A stretch of 42,611 bases of DNA from Candidatus Fermentibacteraceae bacterium (GTDB lineage: Bacteria; Fermentibacterota; Fermentibacteria; Fermentibacterales; JCC-6), in NCBI GenBank assembly GCA_041686025.1, contig JAWLEP010000011.1, forward strand, positions 1 through 42,611. The letters run 5' to 3'. Within the stretch, counting starts at the first letter, position 1. Each line of letters starts with the position of its first letter. Below are positions 1,536 to 24,554 of the stretch, piece by piece. The notes beneath the pieces were generated by a model. The model saw only the letters and a program-made list of their open reading frames with translations, searched no databases and was not told the DNA's origin. Position numbers and translations under genes: made by a program.

Positions 1536-2294
1536 ATGGGTGAGTGGTTCGAGAACGAGGACCTGTGGAGGGACCTCTACCCCTACCTCTTTCCCCCGGA
1601 GCGCTTCGAGGCTGCCGGGGAGGAGGTCACGGCGCTGCTGGAGCTTGCCGGCTTCGCGGGGAAGAGGGTGCTGGACCTCTGCTGCGGCCCCGGCCGCCAC
1701 TCGGTGGAGCTGGCCCGGCGGGGTTACGAGGTCACCGGGGTGGACCGCTCCCCCTACCTGCTGGAGAGGGCCGGGGACCGGGCGGCGGAGATGGGCGCGG
1801 AGGCGGAGTGGGTGCTGGACGACATGCGAAGCTTCCGCAGGCCGGCCGCCTTCGGGCTGGCCATCAACCTCTACACCTCCTTCGGGTACACGTCCTCCGA
1901 GGCCGACGACATGAGGGTGCTGCGGAACGTCCGGGAGAGCCTGGAGCCGGGGGGCAGCCTGGTGATGGAGCTGATGGGCAAGGAGGTGCTGGCCTCCATC
2001 TTCTCGCGGGTGGGGGTTGCCGAGCCGGAGGACGGCAGCAGGCTGTTCATGGTCCGGGACGTCGAAGACGACTGGAGCGTGGTCTCCAACCTGTGGATAC
2101 TGGTCGGGGACGGCAGGGCCAGAGAGTACTCCTTCAGCCACCGGATATACTCCGCCCGGGAGCTGCGGGGCATGCTGGAGGGGGCCGGCTTCCGCGGCGT
2201 CAGGCTCTACGGGGGCCTTGACGGATCCGACTACGACACCGGGGCCTCCCGCCTGGTGGCGGTGGCCTCGGCTCCGGAGGAGGCCTCCGGCTAG
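1536..2294 (+). CDS. Class I SAM-dependent methyltransferase
   Basis: Motif I VLDLCCGPGRH, VTGVDRS, DMR and LYTSFGY; SD AAGGAGG upstream of ATG. Confidence 0.9.
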   Translation: MGEWFENEDLWRDLYPYLFPPERFEAAGEEVTALLELAGFAGKRVLDLCCGPGRHSVELARRGYEVTGVDRSPYLLERAGDRAAEMGAEAEWVLDDMRSFRRPAAFGLAINLYTSFGYTSSEADDMRVLRNVRESLEPGGSLVMELMGKEVLASIFSRVGVAEPEDGSRLFMVRDVEDDWSVVSNLWILVGDGRAREYSFSHRIYSARELRGMLEGAGFRGVRLYGGLDGSDYDTGASRLVAVASAPEEASG

Positions 2295-3730
2295 GGGGCG
2301 AGCAGCGCAGCCCGGCGGCAGACCGACCGGCCCGACGCAGTCAGCCTCAGCAGGTATACGCCGGCTGGGAGCCGCCTTCCCCTGGCGTCAGAGGAGATCG
2401 ACAGTGTCTCCCGTCCGGATACCAGCCCGGCCGCCATGAGCCTGCCCGATCCGTCGTACACCTCCAGACGCCCCTGCCCGTCTCCCGCATCGACGTCCAG
2501 CACCATAGTCCCTCCGGCCCGGACCGGGTTGGCCGCGACCTCCAGAGAGAGTGACCCGGACGCTGCCGCATTCGTACCGTTGGTGGCCGAGGGAGGAATC
2601 TGGCCCAGGGAGTCCACCCGAAGGGCCAGCAGCTGGCCGTTTCCCTCCAGAGTAGAGCTGCCGGTCAGGGCGAACCCCCCGTCCTCGCAGGAGAGTACGG
2701 ACCAGAGGTAGTCGGTCCCCCCGCTGCCGTGGACCTCCGACCAGCACAGGGAGCCGTCCTGGTAGGTCCTCACCATCCATCCGTCCCCGAGGTCGGACTC
2801 CCCGCCGAGGTAGCTCCTGGTGTAGCCGCAGAGCAGGAAGCCGTCATCCAGGGCCAGCAGGTCGTGGCAGCGCTCCCACTCGCCTCCGCCGTAGCAGGCG
2901 GCGGTGAGCGAGTCGCCGTCCGGGTCGGTCTGCAGAAGCCAGAAATCGCCGTCGCCGGAGCCGCAAGAGGTGGTATACCCGCCCAGGGCAAACCCCTGGG
3001 CGGTGAGAGCCAGGCCGTAGCAGACCTCCCATCCGGGGCCGCCGTAGGAGCTGTCCCACAGCATCTGGCCGTCGTAGTCCATGAACGCCAGCCACATGTC
3101 CGAGTCACCGCCCCCGGGGCAGTCCAGTCCGGCCCCCACCAGACCGTCTCCCGCGTCCTCCAGGTCGTAGAAGAGGCGCAGAGGGCCGCTCCCGCTGGTG
3201 ACGGTCCACAATGTGTCCCCGCAGCTGTCGAACCGCAGCAGCCAGGCGTACCCCGTCGACCCGCTCACCGATCTGCTGCCGGCAACCAGGACGCCTCCGT
3301 CCGGATGCTCGATCACCGAGTAGCCGGCATCGTCGCCGGGGCTTTCGATGACCGTGCGCCAGAGGGTGTCCAGGCTGGGGTCGAGCCCGGCCGCCCAGAG
3401 GTCGTAGCCGCCGGAGGCGTCTGCGGCGGAACCCGTCAGGGCGTAGGAGCCGTCCTGCAGGCTGCAGATGTCCAGGCAGTACTCGTCCAGGTCCGGGGCG
3501 CCGTAGAGACGGGAGTCCACGGAGTCCCCGGCCACGTCGAGCTGGAGAACCCAGGCCTGCAGGTCTCCGGCGGGACCCGCCTCGGCGTGGCCCGCCATCA
3601 GGTACCCGTCATCCAGAGCCAGGAGGCTGCGGCCCCCGTCGTCGCCTTCCCCGCCCCACAGCTCCATGAAGCAGGGGAGGGCGGCCGCGGTCCAGCATAT
3701 GAGCACCAGCACAGTGATGGAACTCCGCAT
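2291..3730 (-). CDS. Secreted repeat (beta-propeller-like) protein with T9SS-type C-terminal sorting domain
   Basis: Signal peptide MRSSITVLVLICWTAAA; about 7 repeats of W..(Y)GG..D/E...DGGF.L.G; CTD (ANPVR...LEVYDGSGRL...LPAGVYLLRL). Start at ATG 3730 with GGAG upstream; the longer ORF extension is antisense-like junk. Confidence 0.8.
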   Translation of the reverse strand: MRSSITVLVLICWTAAALPCFMELWGGEGDDGGRSLLALDDGYLMAGHAEAGPAGDLQAWVLQLDVAGDSVDSRLYGAPDLDEYCLDICSLQDGSYALTGSAADASGGYDLWAAGLDPSLDTLWRTVIESPGDDAGYSVIEHPDGGVLVAGSRSVSGSTGYAWLLRFDSCGDTLWTVTSGSGPLRLFYDLEDAGDGLVGAGLDCPGGGDSDMWLAFMDYDGQMLWDSSYGGPGWEVCYGLALTAQGFALGGYTTSCGSGDGDFWLLQTDPDGDSLTAACYGGGEWERCHDLLALDDGFLLCGYTRSYLGGESDLGDGWMVRTYQDGSLCWSEVHGSGGTDYLWSVLSCEDGGFALTGSSTLEGNGQLLALRVDSLGQIPPSATNGTNAAASGSLSLEVAANPVRAGGTMVLDVDAGDGQGRLEVYDGSGRLMAAGLVSGRETLSISSDARGRRLPAGVYLLRLTASGRSVCRRAALLAP

Positions 3731-3888
3731 CTCCGTCTCCTGCCTTTCCCGTATCCTCGTGGGTCTGACATCGCTTCGGGCCGGTGGGTTCGGGCGAGCG
3801 CGATGACTGCCGGAACTGCCGGGGCCGAAGCTGCCCCCGGAGCGCACCTCCGTGGGCTTCTCAGCTGCCGCCTGTCTTTGCTGACATG

Positions 3889-3917
3889 GAAATAGCACCG
3901 GAGTGAACCCAGGTAAA
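3889..3917 (-). promoter_or_regulatory. Putative sigma70 promoter for the 2291-3730 gene
   Basis: Minus strand TTTACC-N17-TATTTC with an extended -10 TG, in the 200-bp intergenic gap. Confidence 0.3.
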
Positions 3918-3930
3918 GGCCGGGGCGGAC

Positions 3931-5316
3931 TCAGAGGACCTCGGCCACCGCCTGCAGGTAGACCCGGCCCCTGTCCAGGGCCTCCCCGACGGGAAATCCC
4001 AGGGCCGCCTCCACCCGGAAGACGCCGCTGCGGCCCCGGAAGCCCAGCCCCAGGGAGGCCGGCCACCTCCAGCCCTGCTCGGTCTCCACGGCTCCCAGGT
4101 CGGAGAAGACGAAGAACCTGGTCTCCGTCTCCCCCAGGGAGACCTCGGGCCCGGCCACGGCGTACCGGCCGGCCCGGAAGCTGCCCTCGGCGTAGCCGCG
4201 GAGGTCTTCGGAGCCCCCCATGCGCCTCAGCCGGCCGGAGAGCCACTCCCCCTCCAGGACACCGCCGGCCAGGGCCCTGCCCCCCAGGCCCAGCCAGCCC
4301 AGGTAGACGTCGCCGCGGGCGGTGAGCTCGGCGGAGGCGTAGGTCTCCTCTCCGGTGGTGTCCGAGGAGACTGCGCGGCCCATGTCCGCCTCCACGTCCA
4401 GGGCCAGCCCCTGCCAGCCCTGTGCCACCCTGCGTCCGGGCCGGGCGGAGAGGCCCACCAGGCCGTAGCTGTAGCGCTGGTCGGGGGCGTTGGGCGGGTA
4501 GCCCCTCCACTGGCCGGCACCGGCGGAGACGTCCAGGGCCCCCACCCTCCATATCAGCAGCAGCTCCCCCTCCCTGTTCACCCAGGAGCTCTCCGGCACC
4601 GACTGGGCCAGCCTGATCTCCGCCGAAAGGGGCGTTCCGGCTATCCAGGGCTCGCGGAAGCGTATGTAGGCGTCCACGCCCCCCCAGTCCACCCGGCGGG
4701 CGGTTATCTCCAGCTCCCTGCCGGTGCCCAGCAGGCTGCGGGTGAGTATCTCCACCCCGCCCTCCACGTCGTCGGCCCCTCCGCTGCCGGTGTAGCCCAG
4801 GTCGGCGGCGAAGTGGCCGGTGGGGGCCTCGATGACGGTCTGGACCAGGACCAGGTCTCCCCCGGGCCCCAGGGCCAGCCTGGTGGGCCCCACCGAGCTC
4901 ACCAGCCGGGAGCGGGCCAGCATGTCCAGCCAGCGCCGGACCTCCTCGGGGTCGTAGGGCTCCCCGGGCCGAAGCTCCAGCAGCCGCAGGAACAGCTCCG
5001 GCCGATTCTTCTCCAGGCCCTCCATCCGCACCTCCTCCAGCCGGGCCCTGCGGCCGGGGACGGCCCGCACCTGCAGCGTGTCCGGGGCCGTCATCAGGCA
5101 GCCCAGTCCGGCGAACGGGTAGCCCCTCCGCAGGTACCAGGCCAGCACCGTGTCCTGAAGGGCCGCCAGCGAGGAGTCGGAGAGCTGCACGGAGGCGAAG
5201 CCCAGCCCGCCGGGCTCGGGCAGCGGCGGGCTGCCGGTGATCCTCACCGCGGCGCCGGACGGGGCGGCATCGGTGGAGAGGGACAGCGACAGCAGCAGGG
5301 CCAGGACGGCGGACAT
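3931..5316 (-). CDS. Omp85 (BamA/TamA-family) outer membrane protein with POTRA domain(s)
   Basis: Signal peptide MSAVLALLLSLSLS; POTRA-like segments (YLRRGYPFA; VRMEGLEKNRPELFLRLLELRPGEPYD); NL(L/F)GTGR-like SLLGTGRELEI; loop-6 motif GGSEDLRGY; GLGFR strands. ATG overlaps the upstream stop (TGATG at 5314-5318). Confidence 0.8.
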   Translation of the reverse strand: MSAVLALLLSLSLSTDAAPSGAAVRITGSPPLPEPGGLGFASVQLSDSSLAALQDTVLAWYLRRGYPFAGLGCLMTAPDTLQVRAVPGRRARLEEVRMEGLEKNRPELFLRLLELRPGEPYDPEEVRRWLDMLARSRLVSSVGPTRLALGPGGDLVLVQTVIEAPTGHFAADLGYTGSGGADDVEGGVEILTRSLLGTGRELEITARRVDWGGVDAYIRFREPWIAGTPLSAEIRLAQSVPESSWVNREGELLLIWRVGALDVSAGAGQWRGYPPNAPDQRYSYGLVGLSARPGRRVAQGWQGLALDVEADMGRAVSSDTTGEETYASAELTARGDVYLGWLGLGGRALAGGVLEGEWLSGRLRRMGGSEDLRGYAEGSFRAGRYAVAGPEVSLGETETRFFVFSDLGAVETEQGWRWPASLGLGFRGRSGVFRVEAALGFPVGEALDRGRVYLQAVAEVL

Positions 5317-8300
5317 CAGAAGCTCACCGTGCCTTCCAGCCCCGCCCTCTGGCTCAGCTCGGCCCCCGCAGGCCGGCGGGCCCAGTAGGTGAGGAAGATG
5401 TCCAGGCCGCCGGAGAGGCGGCGGCCCACCCGCAGGCTGGCCGAGAGGCCGGTTCCCCGGTTGGAGCCGTCGAAGAACCAGGGCGGCAGCTCCCCCTCGC
5501 CGGGGATGACCCACGCCTCCAGCCTGCCGCTTCCGGTGTAGCCCCCGCCGGAGAGGGAGAAGTGGGGGGCGGCGCCCAGCGACCAGGCGGTGAGGACCGA
5601 TATCTCCTCCGCCCTCCTCTCCACGGACAGCTCCAGGCCGGGCTCTATCCAGCCCGGGAAGGTAAGGACGGGGTCCACCGCCCCCCTCAGCCCCAGCACG
5701 CGCCTGGGCTGGTAGAGCTCCTGGCGGGTGCGCCAGGCCTCCGCGGTGAGGTCGGCGTACCAGGCCTCCCCCGGCTCCAGGCGGGGCTGCGCCCTGCCCC
5801 GGAGCTCCGTCTCCAGCCTCCTGCCGGTGCCGCTGTAGCTCTCGGTGGACCGCAGGGCCTTGCCGTAGAGGGAGACCCGGCTCACCGGACCCTCCATGCG
5901 CCACCAGGGGGAGAGGGTGAGGCTGTAGCCACCGTCGCGGTCGTCGCTGAAGGCTCCGGCCAGAAGCAGAGGCGAGAGGCCCCCCTCCTCGCCGCTGGAC
6001 TCCAGCCGGAGGCTCCCGTCCACTCCCCATCCGGGGAGGCTGCGGCTGACGGAGAGGTCGAGGTCGGCCTCGGTGACCACCTCACCCTCGCCGCCGGGCT
6101 GGTAGTACCTCTCGTAGTCGCCGTCGGGGTCGGGGTAGTACTCCCCGGTGTCCGGGTCGTAGCTGTAGTCCCCCTGTCCCTCCCCCACGTACCGGTAGCG
6201 CACCTCCAGGGAGCGGCTGACCACGTTGGAGCCGTCGTAGAGGGCCTGGACGAAGGCACCGGAGGGGGAGCCGGTGAGGTTGAGGCTGATGGTGTTGGCC
6301 CGGGAGGAGCCCTGCCCGGGGTAGAGGCTCAGGGAGTGCTCCAGGTGGGACTGCAGCCGCCAGGGGCCCAGGCGGTTGCTTCCGTCGGCGGCGGCCCTGT
6401 ACCTGCGGTCGGGCCGGGGAAGGCCGCCCACCCGGAGGTCGCGCTCCATCTCCAGGGACAGCCCGCCTCGCTGCCCCCCCCTCTCCAGCAGCAGCCCCAC
6501 GTTCCCCGAGATCCTGTCCCCGGAGAGGCTGTCGGCCCAGCTCTCGCTGGAAACCCCCGCCCCCACGCTGGGGGTAAGCGGGCCCATGTCCAGCCGGGCG
6601 TCGGCGGAGACACCCGTCCGGCTGCCGGGGGCCAGGGAGTCGGTGTCGGTCCTGCGCAGCGAGCTTCCCGCAAGCTCCACCCTCGCCTCGCCGGTGAGGG
6701 GGACCAGACGGGAGCGGAGCCGGGAGGTCTCTCCTCCCTGGGCCAGCTGACGGATGGCGGCGGCCAGCAGGGCCCTCTCCCCCCCGGCCCAGGCCTCGCC
6801 CCAGCTGTCTCGGCCCCCGTAGCCGGGAGGAAGCGCCCAGGCGGCCAGGCTGGAGTCGGACTCCAGGACACCGGCCGGGGCGAAGCCCTCCGAGACCAGC
6901 ATGCCCCGCAGCCCGGCGCGCAGCCCGCCCCCGGCCGCCAGGGACCCCCGGCCCTTGACCGAAGAGCCGCGGCCGGTGGTGGCGTCGGGGTTGAAGAGGT
7001 TGCCCGTCCGCTCGGAGACGGCGGCCTCCAGCTCCACGCGGGGGCCGTCGCCGGCGTCGGGCAGGCTCAGGGACAGCCCGCCCAGCTGAAGGCTCGCAGG
7101 CAGCTGGAGGTAGCGGCGGGGAAGGTGGGTGCCCTCCCCCTCTCCCACCCACAGGAAGCCGCCCAGGGAGGAATCGTAGACGTAGTCGCCCGGCCCCTCC
7201 GGCGGTCGGGAGAAGAATACGTCCCAGCTGCCCCCGTCGGGGCCCTGGTACACGTAGTGGCCCAGGCTGTCGAGGCTGTAGTCGCCCTCCCCCTCCCCCA
7301 CCTCCTCGGCGCCGTCTATCCAGGCGGAGTCCGGGTCCTCCCCCACCGACTGCAGCCTCCCTACCGCCTCGTCGGAGAGGATGAAGCCCAGGGGGTCGCT
7401 CCGGGCGTCGGCGTCCCGCAGGCCCGACAGCTCCATCCTCAGCCCGCCCAGGTCCAGCTCGGCCCCGGCCCGGGCCAGGCTGCTGCGGAACCCGTCGCCG
7501 CGCCCGTAGTAGGTGACCTCCACCCTCTGGTCCTCCCGGACCATCCGGCGGGAGCCGAAGGTGATCAGGCCGGCGGCGTAGTCAACCGTGTAGTCCGCCG
7601 TTATCCCCCGCTGCAGACGGGCACCGTCCAGCAGCACCGTCTCGCTGCCGGGCACCACGTCCACCCCCCCGGAGAAATCGTAGGGCCCCTGCAGGCCCTC
7701 CTCCGTGAAGAAGACGGCCCTGCGCAGCGACTGCCCGGAGGTGCCCCAGCCCCCGGAGGCCGACCAGGCCTCACCGGAGACCCTGCCGTCCAGACCGCTG
7801 GCCTCGCGCCTCCAGCTGAGGGGACCGGGGACGGTGGGCTCCCGAGACCACTCCAGGTCCCCCAGGCGGGCCCGCCAGCGGGGGCCGGTCACCGTGAAGA
7901 GCACCCGGTCCAGCTCGCTGACCAGCTCCGAGGAGCCGGCGCCGATGGGGAGGTTCTCGTCGGTCACCGTTCCGCTGACCTCTATGTCCCGGGCTATCAT
8001 GCCGTCCACCGAGATCCTGGTGGCCTGGGTGACCCCTCCCCCCTGGCCCACCGACACCCCCAGCCTCTTGGCCCCGGAGATGTAGAGGCCCTGGCCGCCG
8101 GGGGGCTGGGGGGGCGGACGGCCTCCGGCGGGGGCTGCGGACAGCCTGTCCATGGTCTCCAGGTCCAGTCCGCGCCGGTGGGGTAGGTCCAGCCCCAGGG
8201 TGTCCAGCACCGCGGTCACCGTGTCCCCCGCCGGCGGAGGCGGGTCCAGCCGCAGGCCGATCCTGCTGCCGTTGAAGCCGAGAGAGGCGGATGTGGTATC

Positions 8301-8429
8301 GCCGTCCCATATCACCGAGGCGGGGCCGGGAGCGGGCCAGACCGAGTCGGGAAGGGCGAAGAAGCCGGAGCCGTCGCTGGGGAGCTCCACCGAAAGCGAG
8401 GAGACCGCCGCCAGCAGCAGGGGGATCAT
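5316..8429 (-). CDS. Large (~1037 aa) putative outer-membrane beta-barrel protein with SprA-like segment
   Basis: Signal-like MIPLLLAAVSS; segment GSETVLLDGARLQRG...DYTVDYAAGLITF; extensive alternating amphipathic strands; C-terminal beta-signal LEGTVSF. ATGA overlap with the upstream gene at 8426-8429. Confidence 0.7.
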   Translation of the reverse strand: MIPLLLAAVSSLSVELPSDGSGFFALPDSVWPAPGPASVIWDGDTTSASLGFNGSRIGLRLDPPPPAGDTVTAVLDTLGLDLPHRRGLDLETMDRLSAAPAGGRPPPQPPGGQGLYISGAKRLGVSVGQGGGVTQATRISVDGMIARDIEVSGTVTDENLPIGAGSSELVSELDRVLFTVTGPRWRARLGDLEWSREPTVPGPLSWRREASGLDGRVSGEAWSASGGWGTSGQSLRRAVFFTEEGLQGPYDFSGGVDVVPGSETVLLDGARLQRGITADYTVDYAAGLITFGSRRMVREDQRVEVTYYGRGDGFRSSLARAGAELDLGGLRMELSGLRDADARSDPLGFILSDEAVGRLQSVGEDPDSAWIDGAEEVGEGEGDYSLDSLGHYVYQGPDGGSWDVFFSRPPEGPGDYVYDSSLGGFLWVGEGEGTHLPRRYLQLPASLQLGGLSLSLPDAGDGPRVELEAAVSERTGNLFNPDATTGRGSSVKGRGSLAAGGGLRAGLRGMLVSEGFAPAGVLESDSSLAAWALPPGYGGRDSWGEAWAGGERALLAAAIRQLAQGGETSRLRSRLVPLTGEARVELAGSSLRRTDTDSLAPGSRTGVSADARLDMGPLTPSVGAGVSSESWADSLSGDRISGNVGLLLERGGQRGGLSLEMERDLRVGGLPRPDRRYRAAADGSNRLGPWRLQSHLEHSLSLYPGQGSSRANTISLNLTGSPSGAFVQALYDGSNVVSRSLEVRYRYVGEGQGDYSYDPDTGEYYPDPDGDYERYYQPGGEGEVVTEADLDLSVSRSLPGWGVDGSLRLESSGEEGGLSPLLLAGAFSDDRDGGYSLTLSPWWRMEGPVSRVSLYGKALRSTESYSGTGRRLETELRGRAQPRLEPGEAWYADLTAEAWRTRQELYQPRRVLGLRGAVDPVLTFPGWIEPGLELSVERRAEEISVLTAWSLGAAPHFSLSGGGYTGSGRLEAWVIPGEGELPPWFFDGSNRGTGLSASLRVGRRLSGGLDIFLTYWARRPAGAELSQRAGLEGTVSF

Positions 8430-9172: not shown

Positions 9173-9212
9173 CTGCCCTCCCGTGCTGGGCGGCGGCGCG
9201 GAGGAAAGGGGG

Positions 9213-15389: not shown

Positions 15390-15572
15390 GCTTGTGGTCC
15401 TCCTGCCAGTGTTTTCTTGCGGCGTATCAGCTGTGGGGAACCGAAAGCCCGCCTGCCAGAGGGCGATCCTCAGGGTCTGGCAATATATGAAGCGCCCGGT
15501 CCCGTGTCGTCTTTCTCGGTCTGTCCACGGTTGGAATATACCCTGCATCGCCCCCCCGGTTCCTCCGCCGGC

Positions 15573-18500
15573 CTAGCGGACCACGGCCAGCACGCCGGTG
15601 TGCTGCGAGGGTGCGCCCTCCAGAGCGTCGGCCTTCTCCGCCGCCAGCCGGTATATGTAGCTTCCGCTGGCCACCGGGTCGCCGTCGTTGTCGCGGCCGT
15701 CCCACCAGATCTGGTTGGACCCGGCGTGGCCGGGTATTCCCGACCGGGAGAGCACGCGCCTTCCCGACACCGTGTAGATCTCCAGCCGCACGTAGCCGGA
15801 GCCGGTCTGCGTCCAGTTCACGGATGCGCCTCCGGGGCAGGGATTGGGGTAGACGAACACGTTGCTCAGGCCCGTGTCCCCCGGATCCAGAACCGTGAAG
15901 CCCATCTCCTCGTAGGATATGTTGTTCAGCCCGTCCGCCGCCCGCAGCCTGAGGTCGTGCTCCCCCGCGGACAGACCGCTCAGGGGCACCTCCAGCCGGC
16001 CCGTGGTGGAGCTGCCCGGGAGGTAGTCGAAGTAGGCCGCCACCGCCTGGGGGCTGTCGTCCACGTAGAGCGTCAGCTGCCTGCCCGGCTCGGAGAGCAG
16101 GTTGATCCCCGAGCTGTCGGCCAGCTCGGCCACCACCACCACGTCGGAGCCCACCTCCGGGTGCCCGACCCCCCGGAAGCCCTGTATCCACATCTCCATG
16201 GAGGGGCCCGTGGTGTCGGAGGATGATGGAGACCCTATCCCCAGATTCTCGGGGTATAGCCATCCCAGGAAGCCGGGGCCGTCGGGGAGGAAGAGGTGGA
16301 CCCTGGCCCGGCTGCCGGTGTCGGCGTCCAGGGGAACGAACATCGAAAGCTCCAGGTCCCCGGCGGGCGAGCTTCCGCTGAAGAAGGCCCTGGCCGTGGA
16401 CACCCGGGAGAGGGGAAGCTGGTGGCGGAAGGGGGAGATGTAGGGGATGGTGTCGTACTCCACCGCGGTGACGTAGGTGTCCGGCTGGGCGGACTCGAAG
16501 GCCAGGACGGAGACCAGGCCGGACCCCGGGGCCTGCCCCTCCAGCGTGGAGGCCTCGCCGGTGAGGAGGTCCGAGAGGGTCAGCGGGCCCAGCTCCTCCG
16601 GGACCGCCGGCGTCAGCGTTCCGTCGCCGAAGAGGATGTACTGCCGGGTGGTGGACACGTAGCCGGTCTCCAGCTTCGCCTGCAGCAGGCAGAGGTCGAA
16701 GGGCAGCGGGTCCGGGGCCAGCATTCGCTCCACCTGGTTCATCAGCAGGTTGCGGTTGCCCGTGGACCCGGTCCCCCCCACGGCGCCGCAGCTCACCACG
16801 GAGCCGCCGTCGGCCACCGTTACGGTGGCCTGCGCGATGCAGCTCCGGTCGGGCTTGTAGAACTCCCCCACGTCGCAGGAGCCGAAGTAGGAGTATGGCA
16901 TTCGGCGTCCGCACTGCAGCAGGTCCACGTCCTCCAGGAAGAGGAAGCCCTCGTCGCATATCTGGTCGTGGGCCCCGTGGCCCAGGAATCCCACGATTAT
17001 GGCCCCCAGGTTCCACTGGTCGATGAAGTCCTGCCTGGCCTCCGGCTTGCGCCACTGCTCGTTCCAGTCGAAGAATACCTCGTAGCATTTCACGGGCAGG
17101 TAGCGGTGGGGCACGCTCTCGGTCATCACCCGCTCCATGTCCCTGGTGTGATAGAACTGGTGATAGGAGGGCCCGTCCGGGTAGCGCTCGTCGTCGGCGG
17201 CCCCGATGACCCGGCCCTGCCACTCCCCCGGCGCCCCTCCGGAGCGGTAGGCCTGGCTCTTCTCCACCACCACCGCCAGCTCCTGCGAGTCCAGGACGCA
17301 TATGCGGGACATGGCCACCTGGGGCGAGCCGGAGCCCTGGAGCTCGGCGAAGCGGTCGTCGTAGGGGTAGCCCTTCGTGGAGCCGTAGATCACCGGCACG
17401 TAGCAGGGCTCGTCGGTGCCGAAGCCCCGCATGTCGTAATGGCCCGAGCCCACCAGCACCACCTCCAGCGGCTGCGGGTCCCAGTTGCTCATGGCCCAGT
17501 CCAGGAAGACCCTGATGGCCTGGGGGTCGGCGGGGCCGCCGTTGAACTCCTGGTAGATCTCACGGGTGGTGACGAAGGCGGTGGATACCCCCGGCTCCTG
17601 CAGGGGCAATGCGCCGTCGCGGAAGTCCTCGTGGCAGATGAACACCCGCTCGGCGCCCTCCAGGGCGCCCACTATCCGTCCCGGGCTCCGCCTATCCACG
17701 GAGGCCGGGGCCAGGAGGTCGGAGCGGGAGGTTATCCACACCGACCTGCTGGTCCTTCTCTCGCCCACGTCCACCTCGAAGGAGGAGGGATGGGACGTGC
17801 CGACAAGGCTGGCGGTGGAGTCCCTCTCCACGAACAGGACGAGGGCGTCGTCCAGGTCTCCCTGCCAGGTGAAGCGCCTTCTGCCCTCCTCCATGTACCA
17901 CTCCAGGGGAAGGTGAAGCTGGCCCTGGGCGTGGCAGGCGGTCCAGGGATGGGCCTCGATCCAGTCCACGTAGAAGATGTCGTTCCCGCTCTCCCGCCAG
18001 ACCTTCACCGAGAGCTGGGAGGGCTGCGGCGAGAAGTTGGAGGCCGGGACCTCCAGTACCCGCCCGGGGCCTACCTCCAGGACGGTGTCCGCCAGCAGCT
18101 CTCCGTTGAGGTACACCTCGGTCCCCATCTCGTCCTGCGGGCCATCGACGTCGGCTACGAAACCCACCCGCAGGGTCCCGGGACCGGTGGCCCCCGGTGT
18201 CTGCAGGGTCTGTTCCAGCCAGGCCGGCTGGCTGCCGAAGACCTTGAACCAGGCCCACCAGCTGGGGGCGTCCTCGTTCAGCCAGAAGTACTCCTTCTCC
18301 AGGCGGATCCTGGCCGGGAAGGTATCGGGCATGGCGGGGGCGCCGGTGAGGCCGCCGTCCAGGGTGTCCATCCTGGCCCCGTCGTCCCCTCCCCAGGTGA
18401 GCCAGTAGCTGTTGCGGTGGTCCCAGCGGCTGGTGTAGTGGTCGGAGAATGTATTTCCGTCGGACTCCCACCAGGACAGACCGGTGCCGAAGAAGACCAG

Positions 18501-19352
18501 GCTGTCGGTGGAGTCGAAGACGCCGTCCCCGCCGTCCATTACCGCTATGGGAACGGGAATGGGCTGGTAGGCCCGGGACCACGGCTGCCCCCCCATCATG
18601 CGTCCCCGGCCCCTGTAGAGGGCCAGGCTGGAGCTGGCGGAGCCCACCGCCCAGGGAAGCTCGGCGCCGGTGAGACGGTAGACGCCGGTGGTGTCCAGTC
18701 CGATCTCGGCCCAGGGGCGGCCCCAGAAGGGGCTGTCGTCCCGCCCGGCGCCGCGGGGACGGGGCCAGACCCGCCCGCCCCCCAGCAGCAGGTCCTCGTA
18801 GAACCGGCCCTCCAGTCCGCGGGCGGGCACCGGAGCGCCGCCGCCCGGGTGCGATACGGTGAGGTCGATGCCGGAGGCCGCCAGGAGGCCGCCTCCGGAG
18901 CTTATCACGGGATGGACGTCCACTCTGGCCATGCGGATGCCTCGATAGGGGGCCACCTCCACCAGGGTTGCCCACTCCTCGGGCAGACCGCTCCGTGCCG
19001 GATGGAGGGAGTCGCAGTCATGGGAGTCCAGGGATACGGCGGCGGGAACGGCAGCGTCGGTGTCCAGCCCGCGCACGCCCAGGGGAGTGGCCGAGACGTC
19101 CACCGGGACGCCCGGCGGGACGGCCACGTAGAGGTGGCGGACGGGAAGCAGCAGGCCGTCGATGGAAGAGCAGCCGGCCGCCTCGTAGGCGCAGAGGCCC
19201 GGGGGAAGCCCCGCCACCCTCTCCACCGGCCCCCACTGCAATACTGCCGTGGTGGCGTCGGACCCCACCTGCACCGCCGGGGCCCGGGGCGCGGACGGGG
19301 GCCCGGAAGCCGTCCCCAGCAGGGAGAGCGCGGCCATGGCTGCAATGATCAC
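15573..19352 (-). CDS. C25-family cysteine peptidase, PorU-like T9SS sortase (paralogue 2)
   Basis: Signal peptide, C25 propeptide-like region, TGVYRLT, DGVFD..D...FFG, IYQEFNGG..DP.AIR.FL, catalytic GHG and SCD, DTTGP...D.SGINL...G.H.L.LRA.D..NN, and FlgD-like/CTD end (VYPNP...WDGRD..G..VASGSYIYRL). Confidence 0.85.
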   Translation of the reverse strand: MIIAAMAALSLLGTASGPPSAPRAPAVQVGSDATTAVLQWGPVERVAGLPPGLCAYEAAGCSSIDGLLLPVRHLYVAVPPGVPVDVSATPLGVRGLDTDAAVPAAVSLDSHDCDSLHPARSGLPEEWATLVEVAPYRGIRMARVDVHPVISSGGGLLAASGIDLTVSHPGGGAPVPARGLEGRFYEDLLLGGGRVWPRPRGAGRDDSPFWGRPWAEIGLDTTGVYRLTGAELPWAVGSASSSLALYRGRGRMMGGQPWSRAYQPIPVPIAVMDGGDGVFDSTDSLVFFGTGLSWWESDGNTFSDHYTSRWDHRNSYWLTWGGDDGARMDTLDGGLTGAPAMPDTFPARIRLEKEYFWLNEDAPSWWAWFKVFGSQPAWLEQTLQTPGATGPGTLRVGFVADVDGPQDEMGTEVYLNGELLADTVLEVGPGRVLEVPASNFSPQPSQLSVKVWRESGNDIFYVDWIEAHPWTACHAQGQLHLPLEWYMEEGRRRFTWQGDLDDALVLFVERDSTASLVGTSHPSSFEVDVGERRTSRSVWITSRSDLLAPASVDRRSPGRIVGALEGAERVFICHEDFRDGALPLQEPGVSTAFVTTREIYQEFNGGPADPQAIRVFLDWAMSNWDPQPLEVVLVGSGHYDMRGFGTDEPCYVPVIYGSTKGYPYDDRFAELQGSGSPQVAMSRICVLDSQELAVVVEKSQAYRSGGAPGEWQGRVIGAADDERYPDGPSYHQFYHTRDMERVMTESVPHRYLPVKCYEVFFDWNEQWRKPEARQDFIDQWNLGAIIVGFLGHGAHDQICDEGFLFLEDVDLLQCGRRMPYSYFGSCDVGEFYKPDRSCIAQATVTVADGGSVVSCGAVGGTGSTGNRNLLMNQVERMLAPDPLPFDLCLLQAKLETGYVSTTRQYILFGDGTLTPAVPEELGPLTLSDLLTGEASTLEGQAPGSGLVSVLAFESAQPDTYVTAVEYDTIPYISPFRHQLPLSRVSTARAFFSGSSPAGDLELSMFVPLDADTGSRARVHLFLPDGPGFLGWLYPENLGIGSPSSSDTTGPSMEMWIQGFRGVGHPEVGSDVVVVAELADSSGINLLSEPGRQLTLYVDDSPQAVAAYFDYLPGSSTTGRLEVPLSGLSAGEHDLRLRAADGLNNISYEEMGFTVLDPGDTGLSNVFVYPNPCPGGASVNWTQTGSGYVRLEIYTVSGRRVLSRSGIPGHAGSNQIWWDGRDNDGDPVASGSYIYRLAAEKADALEGAPSQHTGVLAVVR
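17005..17075. repeat. 71-nt near-identical block shared by the two C25 paralogues (partner at 20825-20895)
   Basis: CCCAGGTTCCACTGGTCGATGAAGTCCTGCC(T/G)GGCC...CAGTCGAAGAA; one mismatch by eye; encodes FFDWNEQWRKPEARQDFIDQWNLG. Confidence 0.9.
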
Positions 19353-19395
19353 TGGTTTTCCCTTCCGAGCCCGGGACGTGACTCCCGGTAACGGG

Positions 19396-22300
19396 CTAAC
19401 GCACTACAGCGATAATACCGATGGACTCCTCGCCGGTTCCCTCTCCGCCGCCTCCGGCGCTGAGCCGGTAGATGTAGCTCCCGCTGGCAACCGGGTCTCC
19501 GTCGTCGTCGCGGCCGTCCCACCACAGCTGGTTGTATCCGGCATCCCCGGGGATGTCACTGCGGGAGTAGACCCTGCGGCCCGACTGGGTGTAGACCGCA
19601 AGCCCCACGGGCCCGGCGCCGCTCTGGTACCAGTTGATGGAGGTCCCGCCCCGGCAGGGGTTTGGGTAGACGAAGACCTGCTCCAGCATGCCTTCTCCGC
19701 CCTCCAGGACCGTCACGGACATCACGCTCTCGGATATGTTGTTCAGGCCGTCCGCGGCCCTGAGCCGCAGCTGGTGCTCCCCCGGCGAGAGCCCCGAGAG
19801 GGGCACCTCCAGCCTGCCGCTGGTGGAGCTGCCGGGGTCGTATGTGAAGTAGCCGGCCACGTACTGCGGGGTCTCGTCCACGTACAGGGTCAGCTGCCTT
19901 CCCGGCTCGGAGAGCAGGTTGATGCCGGAGCTGTCTGCGAGGTCGGCCAGCAGGTTGAAATCGCCGCTGACCTCCGGATGGTCAACGTTGCGGAAGCCCT
20001 GGACCCACATGTCGATCTCGGGCCCGGTGCTGTCGGTCGGTGAGGGGGTTCCCACGTCCAGGCTCTCGGGGTAGAGAGCGGCCAGGAAGCCTCCGGACGC
20101 CGAAGGCTGGTAGAGCTCCACCCTCCCCAGCGAGCCGGTGTCCGCGTCCACAGGGACGAACATCTCCAGGCCGATGTCGCCGCCGGGAGAGCTGCCATTG
20201 TAGAAGGCCTGCGCGGACTGCACCCCGGGCAGCAACTGCTGGAAGCGGAAGGGGGTGTTGTAGGCGATGGGGTAGTTGCTCTCTGCGGTGACGTAGGTGT
20301 CCGGCTGAGCCGACTCGAAGGCCAGCACGGAGACCGGCCCGGGTCCGGGGGCGGTGCCGGACAGCACCGAGACCTCGCCGGTGAGCATGGGGAGCACCCC
20401 GGCCTGGATGCCGGTGTCCGGCACCGCAGGGGTCAGGGTCCCGTCCCCGAACAGGATGTACTGCCTGGTGAAAGTGCCGTAGCCCGCCTGCATCTTGGCC
20501 AGCAGCAGGCACTGGGCGAAGGACATGGGGTCCGGGGCCAGCATCAGCTGCATCTGGGCCTGGAGGAGGTCCCGGTTGTCGGTCCTGATGGTTCCGGCCA
20601 CCGCTCCGCTGCTGGTCACCGACCCGCCCCCGGGTACGCTGACCACCGCCTCGGAGATGCAGCTGCGGTCGGGCCTCCAGAACTCGCCCACGTCACAGGA
20701 GCCGAAGAAGGAGTAGCTCATCCTCCCGCCGCACTGCAGAAGGTCGGCGTCCTCCAGGAACAGCAGCCCCTCGTCGCAGATCTGGTCGTGCGAGCCGTGG
20801 CCCAGGAAGCCGATGAAGACGGCTCCCAGGTTCCACTGGTCGATGAAGTCCTGCCGGGCCTCCGGCTTGCGCCACTGCTCGTTCCAGTCGAAGAAGATCT
20901 CGTAGCACTTCACGGGCCGGAACCTGCTGTAGAGGTGCCCCTCCAGGGCCGCTTCCATGTCCACTGTGTGGTACCACTGGTTGTACACCGGGGGCACGCT
21001 GGGATAGCGCTCGTCGTCCGCCGCGCCTATGACCCTGGACTGCCAGTCGCCGGCGGCGTCGCCGCTGCGGTAGGAGAGCGACTTCTCCACGATGGTGGCC
21101 AGCTCCTGCTGGTCCAGGGCCGAGATCCGGGACATGGCCAGCTGCGGCTCGGTGAAGCCCTGTATGGTGGCGTAGTAGTCGTCCAGGGGGTAGCTGGTGG
21201 TGGAGGGGTTGTAGATCGCAGGAACGTAGCAGGGCTCAGAGGTCCCGAAGCCGCGGACGTCGTAGCTGCCCTGCCCCACCAGGACCACCTCCATGGGGGC
21301 CGGGTCCCACTGGGCCACGGCCCAGTCCAGGAAGGCCCTTATGGCCTGGGGGTCGGTGGGGCCGCCGTTGAACTCGTCGTATATCTCGTCGGTGGTGACG
21401 AAGGCGGTGGGCACGTCCGGGTCCTCCAGGGCCATGCTGCCCTCGTAGAAGTCCGGGTGGCAGATGAAGACCCGCTCGGCGCCGTCGATGCTGCCCACTA
21501 TCCGGCCTGGACTGGCGCTCTCCACACTGGCCGGGGCCATCAGGTCGGACTCCGGGGCGATCCACACCGACCGGGGCGTGCGCAGCCGGCCCACGTCCAC
21601 CTCGAAGGACGAGGGGTCGGCGGTACTCACCAGGCTGGCGGTGGAGTCCTCCTCCACGAAGAGGACGTACGCGCTCTCCAGGTCGCCCTGCCAGGTGAAA
21701 GTGCGCCGCCCGGTATCGGTATACCACGACAGCGGGGCGTGCAGCTGCCCCCCGGCATGGTAGGCGCTCTGGGGGAAGGCCTCCAGCCAGTCGATGAACA
21801 CCTCCCGGGAGCCGGACTCCCTCCAGACCTTCACCGAGACCTGGTTGGCGCCGGGCAGGAAACCGGAAGCGGGAACCTCCAGCTGGTATTCGGCGGTGGC
21901 GTAGAAGGTGGAATCCACCAGCAGGTTCCCGTTCAGGTAGATCTCCGTGCCTATTGTGGACCTGGTGGTGTCCCTGCCGCCCCCCTTGGTGTAGGCGCTC
22001 ACGTATCCCACCCGCAGGGTTCCGGAGCCGCCGGCCCCGGGGGCGTCGAAGGTGGCGTTCAGCGTCTCGGGCGTGCTGCCGTAGGACTTGAACCAGGTCC
22101 ATCCGCTGGATACCTCCGGTCCCACCCAGAAGTACTCCTCCTCCAGATGCACCCTGGCCGGGAAGGAGTCGGGCATGTCCGGGGCCCCGGTGAGGCCGCC
22201 GTCGAGCACGTCCATCCTGGCTCCGGGCTCCCCTCCCCAGGTGAGCCAGTACCGGTTGGTGTGGTCCCACCTGCTGGTGTAGTGATCCGGCGGGGCCTCC

Positions 22301-23193
22301 CCCGACGGCTCCCACCAGGACAGGCCGGTGCCGAAGAAGAGGATCCGGTCGGAGGGGTCGAAGATGCCGTCTCCCCCGTCCTCCACCAGTATGGGGACGG
22401 GGATGGGGTCGTATGCGTCGTCCCACGGCTCCTGGCCCATCATCCGGCCGCGGCCGCGGTACATGGCGAGGCTGGAGCTGGGCTGCCCCACGGCGTCGGG
22501 TATCTCCTCTCCGGTGAGCCGGTAGACTCCGGTGGTGTCGAGGCCGACCTCGATCCAGGGCCTTCCCCAGAACGGGCTGTCGGCGCGGCCGGAGGGCCGG
22601 GGCCATGACCAGACCCGGTTCCCGCCCAGCAGCAGCTCGCTGTAGAAGCGGCCCTCCATGCCGGATGCGGCGGTGGGTCTTCCGCCTCCCCGATGGGATA
22701 CGGTGAGCTGCAGGGAGGCGGCCGCCACCGGCCCGCTCCCCCGGAATATCACCGGGTGCACGTCGATCCTGGCCAGCCTGATTCCCCGGTACCGGCCCAC
22801 CTCCACCAGGGTGGCCCATTCCTTCGGGAGAACGCGGTCGGGGGCCGCGAACAGGGAGTCCCGGCTCTCCGAGTCCAGGCCCACGCCGGCGGGCACATCT
22901 CCCCTGACGTCGAGGGAACGGACGCCCCCGGGGACGGCGGAGACCTCCACCTCGGTGCCGGGGGGAACGGCCACGTACAGGTGCTCCACCGGAAGCATCA
23001 GGCCCTCCATGGTGCGGCATCCGTCCGCGGTGAATCCGCAGAGGCCGTCGGGAAGGCCCTCCACCTCCTCGGCGGGACCCCACTCCAGGAGGGCGGTGGT
23101 GCGGTCGGGAGTCACGGAGACGGCCTGATCGGTGCGGGCAGATGCTGCGGAAGGGGACAACGCCACCAGCAGCGCGGCAGCAAGGGGCAGCAT
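19396..23193 (-). CDS. C25-family cysteine peptidase, PorU-like T9SS sortase (paralogue 1)
   Basis: Collinear with 15573-19352 along its whole length; FLGHGSHD and FGSCDVGEF catalytic motifs; same C-terminal Ig/CTD region. Confidence 0.85.
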   Translation of the reverse strand: MLPLAAALLVALSPSAASARTDQAVSVTPDRTTALLEWGPAEEVEGLPDGLCGFTADGCRTMEGLMLPVEHLYVAVPPGTEVEVSAVPGGVRSLDVRGDVPAGVGLDSESRDSLFAAPDRVLPKEWATLVEVGRYRGIRLARIDVHPVIFRGSGPVAAASLQLTVSHRGGGRPTAASGMEGRFYSELLLGGNRVWSWPRPSGRADSPFWGRPWIEVGLDTTGVYRLTGEEIPDAVGQPSSSLAMYRGRGRMMGQEPWDDAYDPIPVPILVEDGGDGIFDPSDRILFFGTGLSWWEPSGEAPPDHYTSRWDHTNRYWLTWGGEPGARMDVLDGGLTGAPDMPDSFPARVHLEEEYFWVGPEVSSGWTWFKSYGSTPETLNATFDAPGAGGSGTLRVGYVSAYTKGGGRDTTRSTIGTEIYLNGNLLVDSTFYATAEYQLEVPASGFLPGANQVSVKVWRESGSREVFIDWLEAFPQSAYHAGGQLHAPLSWYTDTGRRTFTWQGDLESAYVLFVEEDSTASLVSTADPSSFEVDVGRLRTPRSVWIAPESDLMAPASVESASPGRIVGSIDGAERVFICHPDFYEGSMALEDPDVPTAFVTTDEIYDEFNGGPTDPQAIRAFLDWAVAQWDPAPMEVVLVGQGSYDVRGFGTSEPCYVPAIYNPSTTSYPLDDYYATIQGFTEPQLAMSRISALDQQELATIVEKSLSYRSGDAAGDWQSRVIGAADDERYPSVPPVYNQWYHTVDMEAALEGHLYSRFRPVKCYEIFFDWNEQWRKPEARQDFIDQWNLGAVFIGFLGHGSHDQICDEGLLFLEDADLLQCGGRMSYSFFGSCDVGEFWRPDRSCISEAVVSVPGGGSVTSSGAVAGTIRTDNRDLLQAQMQLMLAPDPMSFAQCLLLAKMQAGYGTFTRQYILFGDGTLTPAVPDTGIQAGVLPMLTGEVSVLSGTAPGPGPVSVLAFESAQPDTYVTAESNYPIAYNTPFRFQQLLPGVQSAQAFYNGSSPGGDIGLEMFVPVDADTGSLGRVELYQPSASGGFLAALYPESLDVGTPSPTDSTGPEIDMWVQGFRNVDHPEVSGDFNLLADLADSSGINLLSEPGRQLTLYVDETPQYVAGYFTYDPGSSTSGRLEVPLSGLSPGEHQLRLRAADGLNNISESVMSVTVLEGGEGMLEQVFVYPNPCRGGTSINWYQSGAGPVGLAVYTQSGRRVYSRSDIPGDAGYNQLWWDGRDDDGDPVASGSYIYRLSAGGGGEGTGEESIGIIAVVR

Positions 23194-23194
23194 G

Positions 23195-23728
23195 CTACAG
23201 CTCCGACAGCTCTAGTATGGGGCCGTCGCCCTCCTCCTCGTCGGGGAGGCGCTCCCGGCGGTCCACCGACTCCCTCTTGATCTTCGCCTCCTCCATGTCC
23301 ACCATCTTCTCCTGTGAGTCTATGAAGGACCTTATCTGCGAGAGTATGGCCATTCGCCGGTCCTGGAGCTCCCTTACCGTCTCGGTGAGGACCCCCACCC
23401 TCTCCTTGGCCTCGCTCACCAGATCGGCGGCCTTCACCTCGGCGTCCATGACGATGAGCTCCGCTTCCTTCTCGGCGTCCTTGCGGGCCCTCTCGGCGCT
23501 CTGCTGCTGCTCCACCAGGACCTCCCGGACCGCCCCCTCCATGCGGTCGAAGTCCGAGGCCCTTGCCCTGAGGACCGACAGCTCCTTCCGCGAGCTCTCC
23601 AGCTCCTCGGTGAGCTCCTCCCAGGCGTTGGCCACCATCTCCAGAAAGGCCTCCACCTCGGAGGGATCGTATCCCCTGAGGACCCTTCCGAACCTCTGCC
23701 TGCGAATGTCCAAAGGCGTTATACCCAC
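23195..23728 (-). CDS. divIVA: DivIVA domain-containing protein
   Basis: ITPLDIRRQRFGRVLRGYDPSEVEAFLE N-terminal signature followed by a coiled coil. Confidence 0.92.
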   Translation of the reverse strand: MGITPLDIRRQRFGRVLRGYDPSEVEAFLEMVANAWEELTEELESSRKELSVLRARASDFDRMEGAVREVLVEQQQSAERARKDAEKEAELIVMDAEVKAADLVSEAKERVGVLTETVRELQDRRMAILSQIRSFIDSQEKMVDMEEAKIKRESVDRRERLPDEEEGDGPILELSEL

Positions 23729-23843
23729 CAGTCACCCCGTTTCGATTGCTTCGGGTCGCCCGGCGTTCCACCGGGTCCACATCTTCTGCGAGCATGTGCA
23801 CCGAGGCGGCGGGCAGCAACCCGCGGCCCGGCAGAGGGCGGGA

Positions 23844-24554
23844 TCATGCCCCCCGGCTTCCGAACAGGTACCTGCCCAGACGCACCGTGGTGGCGCCCTC
23901 CCTGACTGCCTCGGCGAAATCGTCCGTCATGCCCATGGAGAGCTCCGGCAGATCCATGCCCAGGCCCTCCCGGAGGCCTTCGGCCAGCCTGCGCAGCAGG
24001 GCGAAGGCCTCCCGGGCGGCCGCCGGCCCCTGACCCAGGGGGCCGACGGTCATCAGCCCGCCCGGCTCCAGGCCCAGGTCGGCCATCCGGCCCAGCGTCT
24101 CCTCCAGCAGGGAGGGGTCCGGGGCGAAACCGTGCTTGGACTCCTCCCCGGAGGTGTTCACCTCCACCAGGAGGCGCGGCTGGGGCACGTCCTTCACCTC
24201 CATGCGGCGGGCCACCTCGGCCGCTATCTTCATCCGGTCCACGGAGTCGATGGCGTCGAAGTCCCGCATGGCCTGCCGGACCTCCTTGCGGTGCAGGGGG
24301 CCTATCATGTGAAAGCTGCAGCCCTCCGGCCGCTCCCCCAGGCGGCGTATCTTCCGGCCGCCCTCGGTGACCCTGTTCTCCCCTATCAGCCTCACGCCGG
24401 CCTCTATGGCGGCCCGGACCACGTCCACCGGGTGGGTCTTGGTGACGGCCATGATCCGGACGTCCTCCGGGCTCCTTCCACAGCCGCTGCAGGCTGCGGC
24501 GATCTCCTCCCGGGCCCTCCGCAGGCGCTGCGCGATCACGTCGCTTTCCACCAT
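23844..24554 (-). CDS. yggS: YggS-family PLP homeostasis protein
   Basis: MAVTKT (PLP lysine), GENRV, EVNTSGEESKHG, GLMT, LSMGMTDDF and GATTVRLGR.LFG. Confidence 0.95.
   Translation of the reverse strand: MVESDVIAQRLRRAREEIAAACSGCGRSPEDVRIMAVTKTHPVDVVRAAIEAGVRLIGENRVTEGGRKIRRLGERPEGCSFHMIGPLHRKEVRQAMRDFDAIDSVDRMKIAAEVARRMEVKDVPQPRLLVEVNTSGEESKHGFAPDPSLLEETLGRMADLGLEPGGLMTVGPLGQGPAAAREAFALLRRLAEGLREGLGMDLPELSMGMTDDFAEAVREGATTVRLGRYLFGSRGA

Follow-up and report, generated by a model that had tools for sequence, protein, structure and literature searches.

A conserved porU-porV gene block with a compact SprA-like barrel and its own Omp85 protein: a probable sorting half of a motor-less type IX secretion system in Candidatus Fermentibacteraceae

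What does a run of genes for type IX secretion system (T9SS) sorting proteins do in a genome outside the Bacteroidota, and what is the role of the large outer membrane barrel encoded with them? We addressed this question for a stretch of DNA from Candidatus Fermentibacteraceae (contig JAWLEP010000011.1, positions 1 to 42,611, here referred to as the window and numbered C11 among our contigs; GC content, ∼70%), which belongs to a 2.70-Mb genome that is 94.75% complete. Positions 2291 to 24554 hold twelve genes, all on the minus strand, in the order yggS, divIVA, porU1, porU2, porV, an M6 protease gene, a DUF5683-like gene, an M30-like gene, an NHL-repeat gene, the gene for a 1037-amino-acid (aa) barrel, an Omp85 gene, and a gene for a 479-aa protein with a C-terminal sorting domain (CTD). 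An earlier note, made from the sequence alone, had correctly reported the twelve co-oriented genes and had read them as a possible variant or ancestral T9SS module of a sister lineage in the Fibrobacterota-Chlorobiota-Bacteroidota (FCB) group. We consider it probable that the conserved part of this cluster encodes the sorting half of a T9SS that works without the usual motor, in which the barrel, here termed mini-SprA, is an accessory channel or port built by its own Omp85 and the NHL propeller is a plug or chaperone.

The junction gaps, from yggS to the last gene, are 115, 1, 43, 183, 1, 9, -1, 40, -4, -1, and 200 nucleotides (nt), and the 1-nt gaps and TGATG/ATGA overlaps that had been pointed out (at 23195/23193, 14379/14377, 10880, 8426-8429, and 5316) agree with the gene coordinates. 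The operon-like compactness read from them does not go beyond chance, however: in our own gene calls, 6 of the 11 junctions are ≤10 nt, compared with 809 of 1700 co-oriented pairs genome-wide, and 40 of the 601 same-strand runs contain at least 12 genes. Compactness was therefore rejected as operon evidence, and since tight spacing is ordinary in this genome, the signal lies in the conservation of gene order. The barrel is present in 66 of 69 relatives from the same order, and the order porU-porV-M6-DUF5683-M30-NHL-barrel-Omp85 is kept in all 19 relatives whose loci were fetched (NHL found by tblastn in 17 and as an open reading frame in place in 2). Outside the order, 15 of 81 genomes carry a full-length barrel, one of which is also part of the Bacteroidota sample described below. 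Of the remaining 14, six carry the complete block except for the M30-like gene (G038, G289, G242, G282, G258, and G302 in our genome numbering, with no NHL gene detected in G258 and the porV and DUF5683-like genes of G302 read by eye), six have barrel-Omp85 with or without the propeller gene, and two have propeller-barrel only; Omp85 lies directly 3' of the barrel in 12 of the 14, and SprA scores over its cutoff in all of them. The lineage labels include Candidatus Edwardsbacteria (G038), Candidatus Eisenbacteria (G282), and "Gemmatimonadota" (G288), and the Atlas neighbors fall into WOR-3, Zixibacteria, and Stahlibacteria clusters. The Omp85 scores are circular for loci used in the profile, and we therefore retested with profiles made from Fermentibacterota only; these find the barrel, Omp85, DUF5683-like protein, M6 protein, PorV, and PorU in three other lineages (E values of 1e-8 to 1e-134), with the NHL profile being weak there (5e-8 to 0.014). 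The barrel, Omp85, and NHL genes hence co-occur with porU and porV, in the same order, across lineages, and the lack of such co-occurrence that the earlier note had named as grounds against a module was not observed.

The labels given in that note to the two C25/PorU-like genes, PorV, the 1037-aa barrel, and Omp85 all held. The last ten of the twelve genes encode hydrophobic N termini. porU1 (positions 19396 to 23193; this and all other cluster genes are on the minus strand) encodes a PorU-like C25 sortase of 1265 aa with a signal peptide and a CTD ending in AVVR (PF01364, E value of 8e-53), in which His798 (GHG) and the Cys of GSC (831-833) are intact and which aligns over its full length with Porphyromonas gingivalis PorU (6ZA2; E value of 1e-21). 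Its tandem duplicate porU2 (positions 15573 to 19352; 1259 aa) is 65% identical, with intact catalytic motifs; the pair was seen only in the window genome and in G001, of the same genus, while most relatives carry a single porU. On NF033707, the two reach 326 and 297 bits, under the cutoff of 420, and the features of a PorU sortase (the C25 His/Cys dyad, a PorU-type N-terminal region, and a CTD) are present. The region C13:24350-32621 contains two further PorU-like genes, one of which reaches 418.8 bits on NF033707, making four in the genome, and in G005 a second porU-like gene (L044:17144-18583) stands upstream of divIVA in place of yggS. The window porV (positions 14379 to 15389) encodes a PorV-family carrier barrel of 336 aa with a C-terminal Phe (NF033709, 254 bits with a cutoff of 90; PF19572, 6e-20; 6H3I chain F, 1e-24; NF033710, 188 bits, under the cutoff of 250) and scores best among four PorV-family loci over cutoff in the genome. 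The PorV proteins of G038 (L057:13823-16297) and G242 (L192:4894-7584) have 824 to 886 aa; ∼500 residues without a Pfam match are inserted behind their N-terminal segment.

Between porV and the barrel lie four genes that are less familiar from T9SSs. The first (positions 11546 to 14377) encodes an M6-family zinc protease of 943 aa with an FG-GAP propeller and a CTD ending in AVVN (PF05547, PF13517, and TIGR04183). It shares the M6 domain and CTD with NF052323, the family of T9SS-dependent M6-like inactivated metalloproteases, but scores 322 bits, below the cutoff of 600, and keeps its HExxH motif (HEFGH in the window), which is intact in 16 of 18 aligned order relatives and in 6 of 6 other lineages and is lost only in two relatives of one genus, g8 (L053 and L056). 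The DUF5683-like gene (positions 10880 to 11536; 218 aa, with a signal peptide and a C-terminal Phe) owes its label to orthologues and the Atlas: the window protein has no Pfam match of its own, one of five orthologues matching PF18935 does so over cutoff, and PF18935 is found in 10% of the members of the Atlas cluster. The M30-like HExxH protease (positions 9213 to 10880; 555 aa, CTD ending in AVVR; weak NF045524 and TIGR04183 matches) has its HExxH motif, as HELVH, in 19 of 19 relatives, and it is part of the block in Fermentibacterota only, being missing from the six full blocks of other lineages. The NHL-repeat β-propeller (positions 8426 to 9172; 248 aa, with a signal peptide) matches PF01436 with an E value of 0.001, below the Pfam cutoff, although the label holds; the gene has the same position in relatives and in other lineages, in the latter with a clear NHL protein, and its stop codon overlaps the barrel start (ATGA). 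Three further CTD proteins had been noted in the cluster, and these are the M6 plus FG-GAP protein, the M30-like HExxH protein, and a propeller-like protein. By eye, the tails of PorU, PorZ-like, M6, and M30 proteins mostly end in A-V/L/A-V-R/N (window plus C13, C16, C33, and C5), while most other CTD proteins of the genome end in V-x-L-R or similar; the former ending is possibly a machinery-type CTD class. Since the M6 and M30 proteins share A-V-V-R/N tails with PorU and the PorZ-like protein, they probably reside at the surface as components of the sorting complex instead of being ordinary cargo.

The window contains no porKLMN and no sprA, as previously noted, and genome-wide profile searches placed further outer membrane parts elsewhere. 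A full sprA lies at C27:5215-10665 (TIGR04189, 448.7 bits with a cutoff of 200), its product being shorter, with 1816 aa as called, than the profile length of 2319. CTD proteins are abundant (76 TIGR04183 matches, and 94 of the 1950 protein tails when an iterated local profile is used), and a PorZ-like propeller-plus-CTD gene, below cutoff, is located on C16. The SprA/Sov translocon, the PorV carrier, and type A CTD cargo of a canonical T9SS are thus in place, whereas its motor (GldL/GldM) and ring (GldK/GldN) are not: profile searches gave no GldL, GldM, or GldN match in the window genome, and the only GldK matches were three of the FGE-sulfatase type with 37 to 68 bits, compared with a cutoff of 350. 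PorP gave no match in the genome, with a model that scored true PorP in other genomes. All three of GldL, GldM, and GldN were likewise not found in 7 Fermentibacterota (the window genome, G000, and six relatives, one covered by a single contig), 20 out-of-order genomes, and 9 further genomes of the Bacteroidota sample, 36 noncontrol genomes among 44, and were found together in the same 8 of the 44, all controls from the Bacteroidota sample. GldL was also found in 0 of 41 order genomes, with a model that scored a true GldL, and GldN was found in 0 of 27 Fermentibacterota and out-of-order genomes, with positive controls. With sprA present, GldL, GldM, GldN, and PorP not found, and GldK subthreshold, the genome has no complete canonical T9SS; such a complete system was what the earlier note had named as grounds against its reading. 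The system resembles the outer membrane half of a T9SS and falls outside the canonical type on motor and ring.

Some candidate energizers were noticed as well. Downstream of sprA, on its strand, pilB-pilB-pilT-pilC follow in all 7 Fermentibacterota compared (C27:1-10665 in G000; L239-L245) and, with one small gene in between, in G038, but in 0 of 13 further genomes. The lptF/lptG genes are oriented divergently to sprA in those 8 genomes and in 5 of the 13. The linkage is a weak lead for a SprA energizer because the relatives have a secretin: no secretin was seen in G000, but the idea of a secretin-less pilus motor serving SprA was rejected when one was found in 25 of 25 relatives, and its absence from G000 is most likely an assembly gap. 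Three MotA/TolQ/ExbB-family motors are encoded in G000 (C81, C4, and C28), one in a tol-pal cluster, a second adjoining a TonB-dependent receptor, and a third with a long acidic N terminus on its ExbB, beside a 1499-aa coiled-coil protein. A partial GldM-like match (E value of 8e-13) was noticed in a 356-aa frame of the Longimonas halophila genome G049 (L139; Rhodothermia).

The gene at positions 5316 to 8429 encodes mini-SprA, a predicted outer membrane barrel that belongs to no family of Pfam or NCBIfam. According to the DSSP string of its AlphaFold2 (AF2) model (pLDDT, 78.6; pTM, 0.69; 24-row alignment), it would have ∼36 to 38 long strands over residues 114 to 1036 and three small inserted β-regions; both strand count and pore are predictions. 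TIGR04189 matches positions 600 to 651 (E value of 3e-7) with 28 bits, compared with the cutoff of 200, and a SprA proper exceeds this cutoff and has ∼2000 aa or more. Profile comparison by hhalign (44 versus 21 sequences) aligned barrel residues 114 to 312 with SprA residues 88 to 340 (probability of 95; E value of 3e-8), 254 to 342 with 488 to 585 (probability of 97; E value of 2e-10), and 18 to 84 with 479 to 556 (probability of 66). By sequence, the protein is a SprA paralogue in its first third and not a SprA. Compared with SprA/Sov (PDB accession numbers 6H3I and 8GL6; a 36-strand translocon), it is colinear over the first strands and the inserted small β-domain and has a similar predicted strand count, but it is ∼800 residues shorter and is predicted to have far less of the extracellular cap. 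Named homologues at 44 to 53% identity come from Candidatus Fermentibacteria, Aegiribacteria, and Fermentibacterales, which points to Candidatus Fermentibacterota as the host. Long frames, mostly of 900 to 2300 aa, that match SprA only in its inserted domain or its N-terminal part and stay below the SprA cutoff were seen in genomes lacking a full barrel (G230, G231, G237, G260, G262, G267, G280, G287, G298, G304, G236, G276, G281, and G303), and these partial frames point to a wider SprA-like family.

The barrel is not confined to sister lineages, and in this respect the earlier reading was too narrow. Among 151 evenly sampled Bacteroidota genomes, 103 have a full barrel, 120 have SprA, and 37 have GldN. 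The full-length barrel was found in 103 of the 120 SprA-positive genomes versus 0 of the 31 SprA-negative ones and in 29 of 37 genomes with both SprA and GldN versus 74 of 83 with SprA but no GldN. Five weak barrel-profile matches (E values of 1e-4 to 1e-7; G130, G131, G154, G167, and G187) were dropped, and the two of these that were listed sit in SprA-length frames.

The gene directly downstream (positions 3931 to 5316; its start overlaps the barrel stop in TGATG) encodes an Omp85 protein of 461 aa with an LRGY motif in loop 6. Its AF2 model (pLDDT, 88.3) has two POTRA domains and 16 strands, and Foldseek matched it to BamA and TamA (E value of 2e-22; TM scores of 0.59 to 0.70). The BamA of the genome is encoded separately, on C27. 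A tree set 32 such Omp85 proteins apart from this BamA and two other Omp85 proteins (96/94; long branches and three reference rows). By structure and gene content, the protein agrees with the BamA-like Omp85 subfamily of Heinz and Lithgow (2014; PMC4104836), which, in the excerpts of published papers that this and the following citations refer to, is cataloged as having one to three POTRA domains and a 16-strand barrel besides BamA; the comparison with that sequence cluster is one of features. The block has no TamB-like gene, and the Omp85 has no lipobox; an adjacent tamB or an N-terminal lipoprotein Cys would be expected for a translocation and assembly module (TamA/TamL-TamB). A further Omp85 gene, on C2, has a candidate long periplasmic gene next to it.

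We surveyed this Omp85 in 51 genomes chosen from the 151 Bacteroidota. A short-frame orthologue (500 to 660 aa, matching into the barrel part) was found in 22 of 24 barrel-positive genomes but in 0 of 17 SprA-positive, barrel-negative genomes and 0 of 10 SprA-negative genomes, with POTRA-only matches in short frames (G068 and G174) scored as negative and with kin among the genomes, which are not independent. The Omp85 follows the mini-barrel, not SprA, even where the two are unlinked. Among 10 fetched GldN-positive genomes, the Omp85 heads DUF4271-hemD-(porP)-gldK-gldL-gldM-gldN in five and lies between rpsL and susC in the other five. The rpsL-susC placement is that of flavobacterial orthologues. 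Since SusC of Flavobacterium johnsoniae is Fjoh_0403 (PMC12611786), this synteny, rather than the sequence of the protein itself, suggests that Fjoh_0402 is probably the F. johnsoniae orthologue. Fjoh_0402 has been described as TamA-like, with an SPI signal and no neighboring tamB (PMC12045153), and differs from the window protein in that three POTRA domains are reported instead of two. Neither the excerpts of PMC12045153 nor those of PMC4104836 link such Omp85 proteins to a T9SS or a partner barrel. In the Rhodothermia genome G053, a full PorZ gene (L276:11171-13498; NF052228 over cutoff) lies 2.6 kb from the Omp85 orthologue.

A working scheme can be proposed from these parts. CTD-tagged proteins would cross the inner membrane via Sec and then enter the full SprA encoded on the other contig. 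As in P. gingivalis, PorV would capture the CTD, and PorU, whose His and Cys residues are intact, would remove it and join the cargo to a glycolipid of the cell surface, with the M6 and M30 proteases likely residing at the surface in the same complex. Mini-SprA would likely be a second, compact T9SS channel or docking port that Omp85, as a likely dedicated insertase, would build into the membrane, with the NHL propeller serving as an accessory plug or chaperone. The scheme bears on energy supply: SprA is reported to load cargo onto PorV energy-free, with release needing energy (PMC10994853), and in current models the energy of the GldLM motor and PorKN hub pulls cargo from SprA (PMC10994853, PMC12635249, and PMC12365241), with PorU being the sortase bound to PorV (PMC12365241). 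With ∼4% of genes CTD-tagged and SprA, PorV, and PorU encoded without a detectable motor, either release differs here or another energizer exists, and the block supplies candidate extra parts for motor-less secretion.

Several observations weigh against the proposed role of mini-SprA. Homology to SprA is limited to residues 18 to 342, with no significant profile match in the C-terminal two-thirds. The structure searches (Foldseek and VIA-align) rank generic large barrels over SprA (rank 16; TM score of 0.18), a second search has no SprA among the best 50 matches listed, and the barrel has no sequence relative among solved structures. Seventeen of the 120 SprA-positive Bacteroidota genomes, 9 of them also GldN negative, have no barrel, which is therefore not essential, and most of the 31 SprA-negative genomes probably belong to a single clade, which makes these counts nonindependent. 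The Bacteroidota barrel gene is not located with the block: 80 Rhodothermia barrel loci gave only scattered matches (porV-like in 3, uninspected; porU-like in up to 4; Omp85 in 1, on the opposite strand), and 13 full and 2 partial loci among 20 further ones, all 20 checked for Omp85 adjacency, have no adjoining block gene. In genome G303, a 934-aa protein is matched by the barrel profile in its N-terminal part (E value of 2e-54), and no SprA match was seen at 1e-15. The lack of motor matches was obtained with profiles trained on Bacteroidia in a genome that is 94.75% complete, and very divergent homologues are possible. Lastly, deletion of Fjoh_0402, the probable orthologue, is reported to cause no growth defect (PMC12045153, section 5).

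Some of these points would suit other roles for the barrel. It might be a scaffold or assembly aid that, with Omp85, folds SprA or holds PorV-PorU attachment complexes together, as the PorKN ring surface does in P. gingivalis, where attachment complexes sit on PorKN rings (PMC12365241). We regard this as unlikely, though worth keeping in mind: the barrel's distribution is nested in that of SprA, it is encoded with porU and porV in six other lineages, and it is somewhat commoner without GldN (74/83 versus 29/37), but a predicted barrel of ∼36 to 38 strands is a large pore for a scaffold, and most ring-bearing genomes keep it too. A distinctly doubtful alternative is that barrel, Omp85, and NHL form an independent envelope system, for example, for the uptake or export of large polymers or of non-CTD proteins, which shares an old operon and lineage range with the T9SS. 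Six of the 14 out-of-order genomes have the trio linked but without porU and porV, and in Bacteroidota its genes are unlinked; both systems occur across the FCB group, where shared ancestry can mimic co-occurrence, and G303 has its partial homologue without a detected SprA. Against this stand the absence of the barrel from all 31 SprA-less Bacteroidota, its sequence homology to SprA itself, and the association of Omp85 with T9SS genes in two arrangements, the porU block and the gldKLMN operon.

That the module instead replaces the GldKLMN motor and frees PorV-bound cargo from SprA is very improbable. Cargo extraction from SprA needs energy (PMC10994853), and the barrel is present in all 14 motor-less out-of-order genomes, by construction, and in 74 of 83 GldN-negative SprA genomes; yet 29 of 37 GldN-positive genomes keep it, and the block encodes no inner membrane or ATP-binding protein. 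The 9 of 83 GldN-less SprA genomes without a barrel led us to reject this role. The barrel-Omp85 pair is accessory and is not the missing motor. Returning to mini-SprA as an accessory channel or port within a sorting block, the earlier proposal of a variant T9SS module gains support from sprA without a found motor and from the conserved block. The order of barrel, Omp85, and NHL with porU and porV likewise fits dedicated components, whereas the barrel is dispensable in some SprA genomes.

A further step is more tentative, and we hold it with less than even confidence: mini-SprA, Omp85, and NHL may be an overlooked ancestral part of the T9SS, a second, compact SprA-family translocon predating GldKLMN, and the block the ancestral operon, in which case the motor-less form would be original and the most widespread in FCB-allied lineages and the pair would still be working in gliding bacteria. 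In favor of an ancestral motor-less form, 83 of the 120 SprA-positive genomes of the Bacteroidota sample have no GldN, and such genomes bear on the proposal that gliding is ancestral in Bacteroidota (PMC12635249).

Compared with the T9SSs of Bacteroidota (F. johnsoniae Gld/Spr and P. gingivalis Por), the system shares SprA, PorV, PorU with its His and Cys, a PorZ-like protein, further PorV/Q-family barrels, and CTD proteins; it differs in that GldL, GldM, GldN, and PorP were not found, GldK is subthreshold, and porU-porV share a block with M6, DUF5683-like, and NHL genes, a second SprA-family barrel, and Omp85. T9SS parts outside the Bacteroidia are known: SprA has been termed FCB specific (PMC12611786), a T9SS is considered possible in other FCB phyla (PMC11285876), and Ignavibacterium and Melioribacter have PorV, SprA, and Plug only (PMC11705866), that is, SprA and PorV without motor genes, as here. 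The excerpts of PMC11705866 and PMC11285876 mention no conserved block, second barrel, Omp85, or Fermentibacterota, and term look-up in PMC8542988, PMC11495043, PMC11205867, PMC5445135, and PMC12204202 returned nothing on the block from the text searched. Our literature search, mainly of open-access main texts, found no description of the block, the SprA paralogue, or a Fermentibacterota T9SS; more on the distribution and on Fjoh_0402 may be contained in the supplementary tables of PMC12611786 and PMC12045153. New here is a variant T9SS with an unstudied mini-SprA/Omp85 pair, and the most useful point is the tight pairing of the two, which persists in model Bacteroidota. If the proposal is true, a barrel and its own Omp85, paired by co-occurrence, would be a rare dedicated insertase-substrate pair. 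Since Flavobacteria and related groups retain both genes and the probable Omp85 orthologue has already been deleted, a model organism is available for testing the idea.

The three remaining cluster genes lie outside the cross-lineage core; two of them, yggS and divIVA, had been left unnamed in the earlier note. yggS (positions 23844 to 24554; TIGR00044) is a flanking housekeeping gene for a pyridoxal phosphate-binding protein and stands beside the block in 15 of 16 informative relatives. The divIVA-domain gene (positions 23195 to 23728; PF05103), 1 nt from porU1, is at the block in 16 of 16 informative relatives, flanking it in Fermentibacterota only and not seen at the blocks of other lineages. 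The 479-aa CTD cargo protein (positions 2291 to 3730; TIGR04183) is encoded 200 nt downstream of Omp85 and was not found 3' of Omp85 in the loci of 19 relatives, one of which stops at a contig edge. This 200-nt gap and the 183-nt gap before porV, which contains one weak promoter-like and one terminator-like site, may be transcript breaks. Three RNA runs contained small shares (0.16, 0.09, and 0.06; contigs only), and one 4160-nt RNA-run contig, belonging to a relative, covers M30 in part, NHL, and most of the barrel gene, with flat cover that could be DNA. By inspection, the rest of the window (positions 24719 to 42398) is housekeeping, with genes for a TPR protein and a comM-like ATPase, rnhB, rplS, trmD, rimM, and rpsP, as well as ffh, rpe, a PASTA protein gene, rsmB, and genes for an H+/Na+ pyrophosphatase and heptose kinases.

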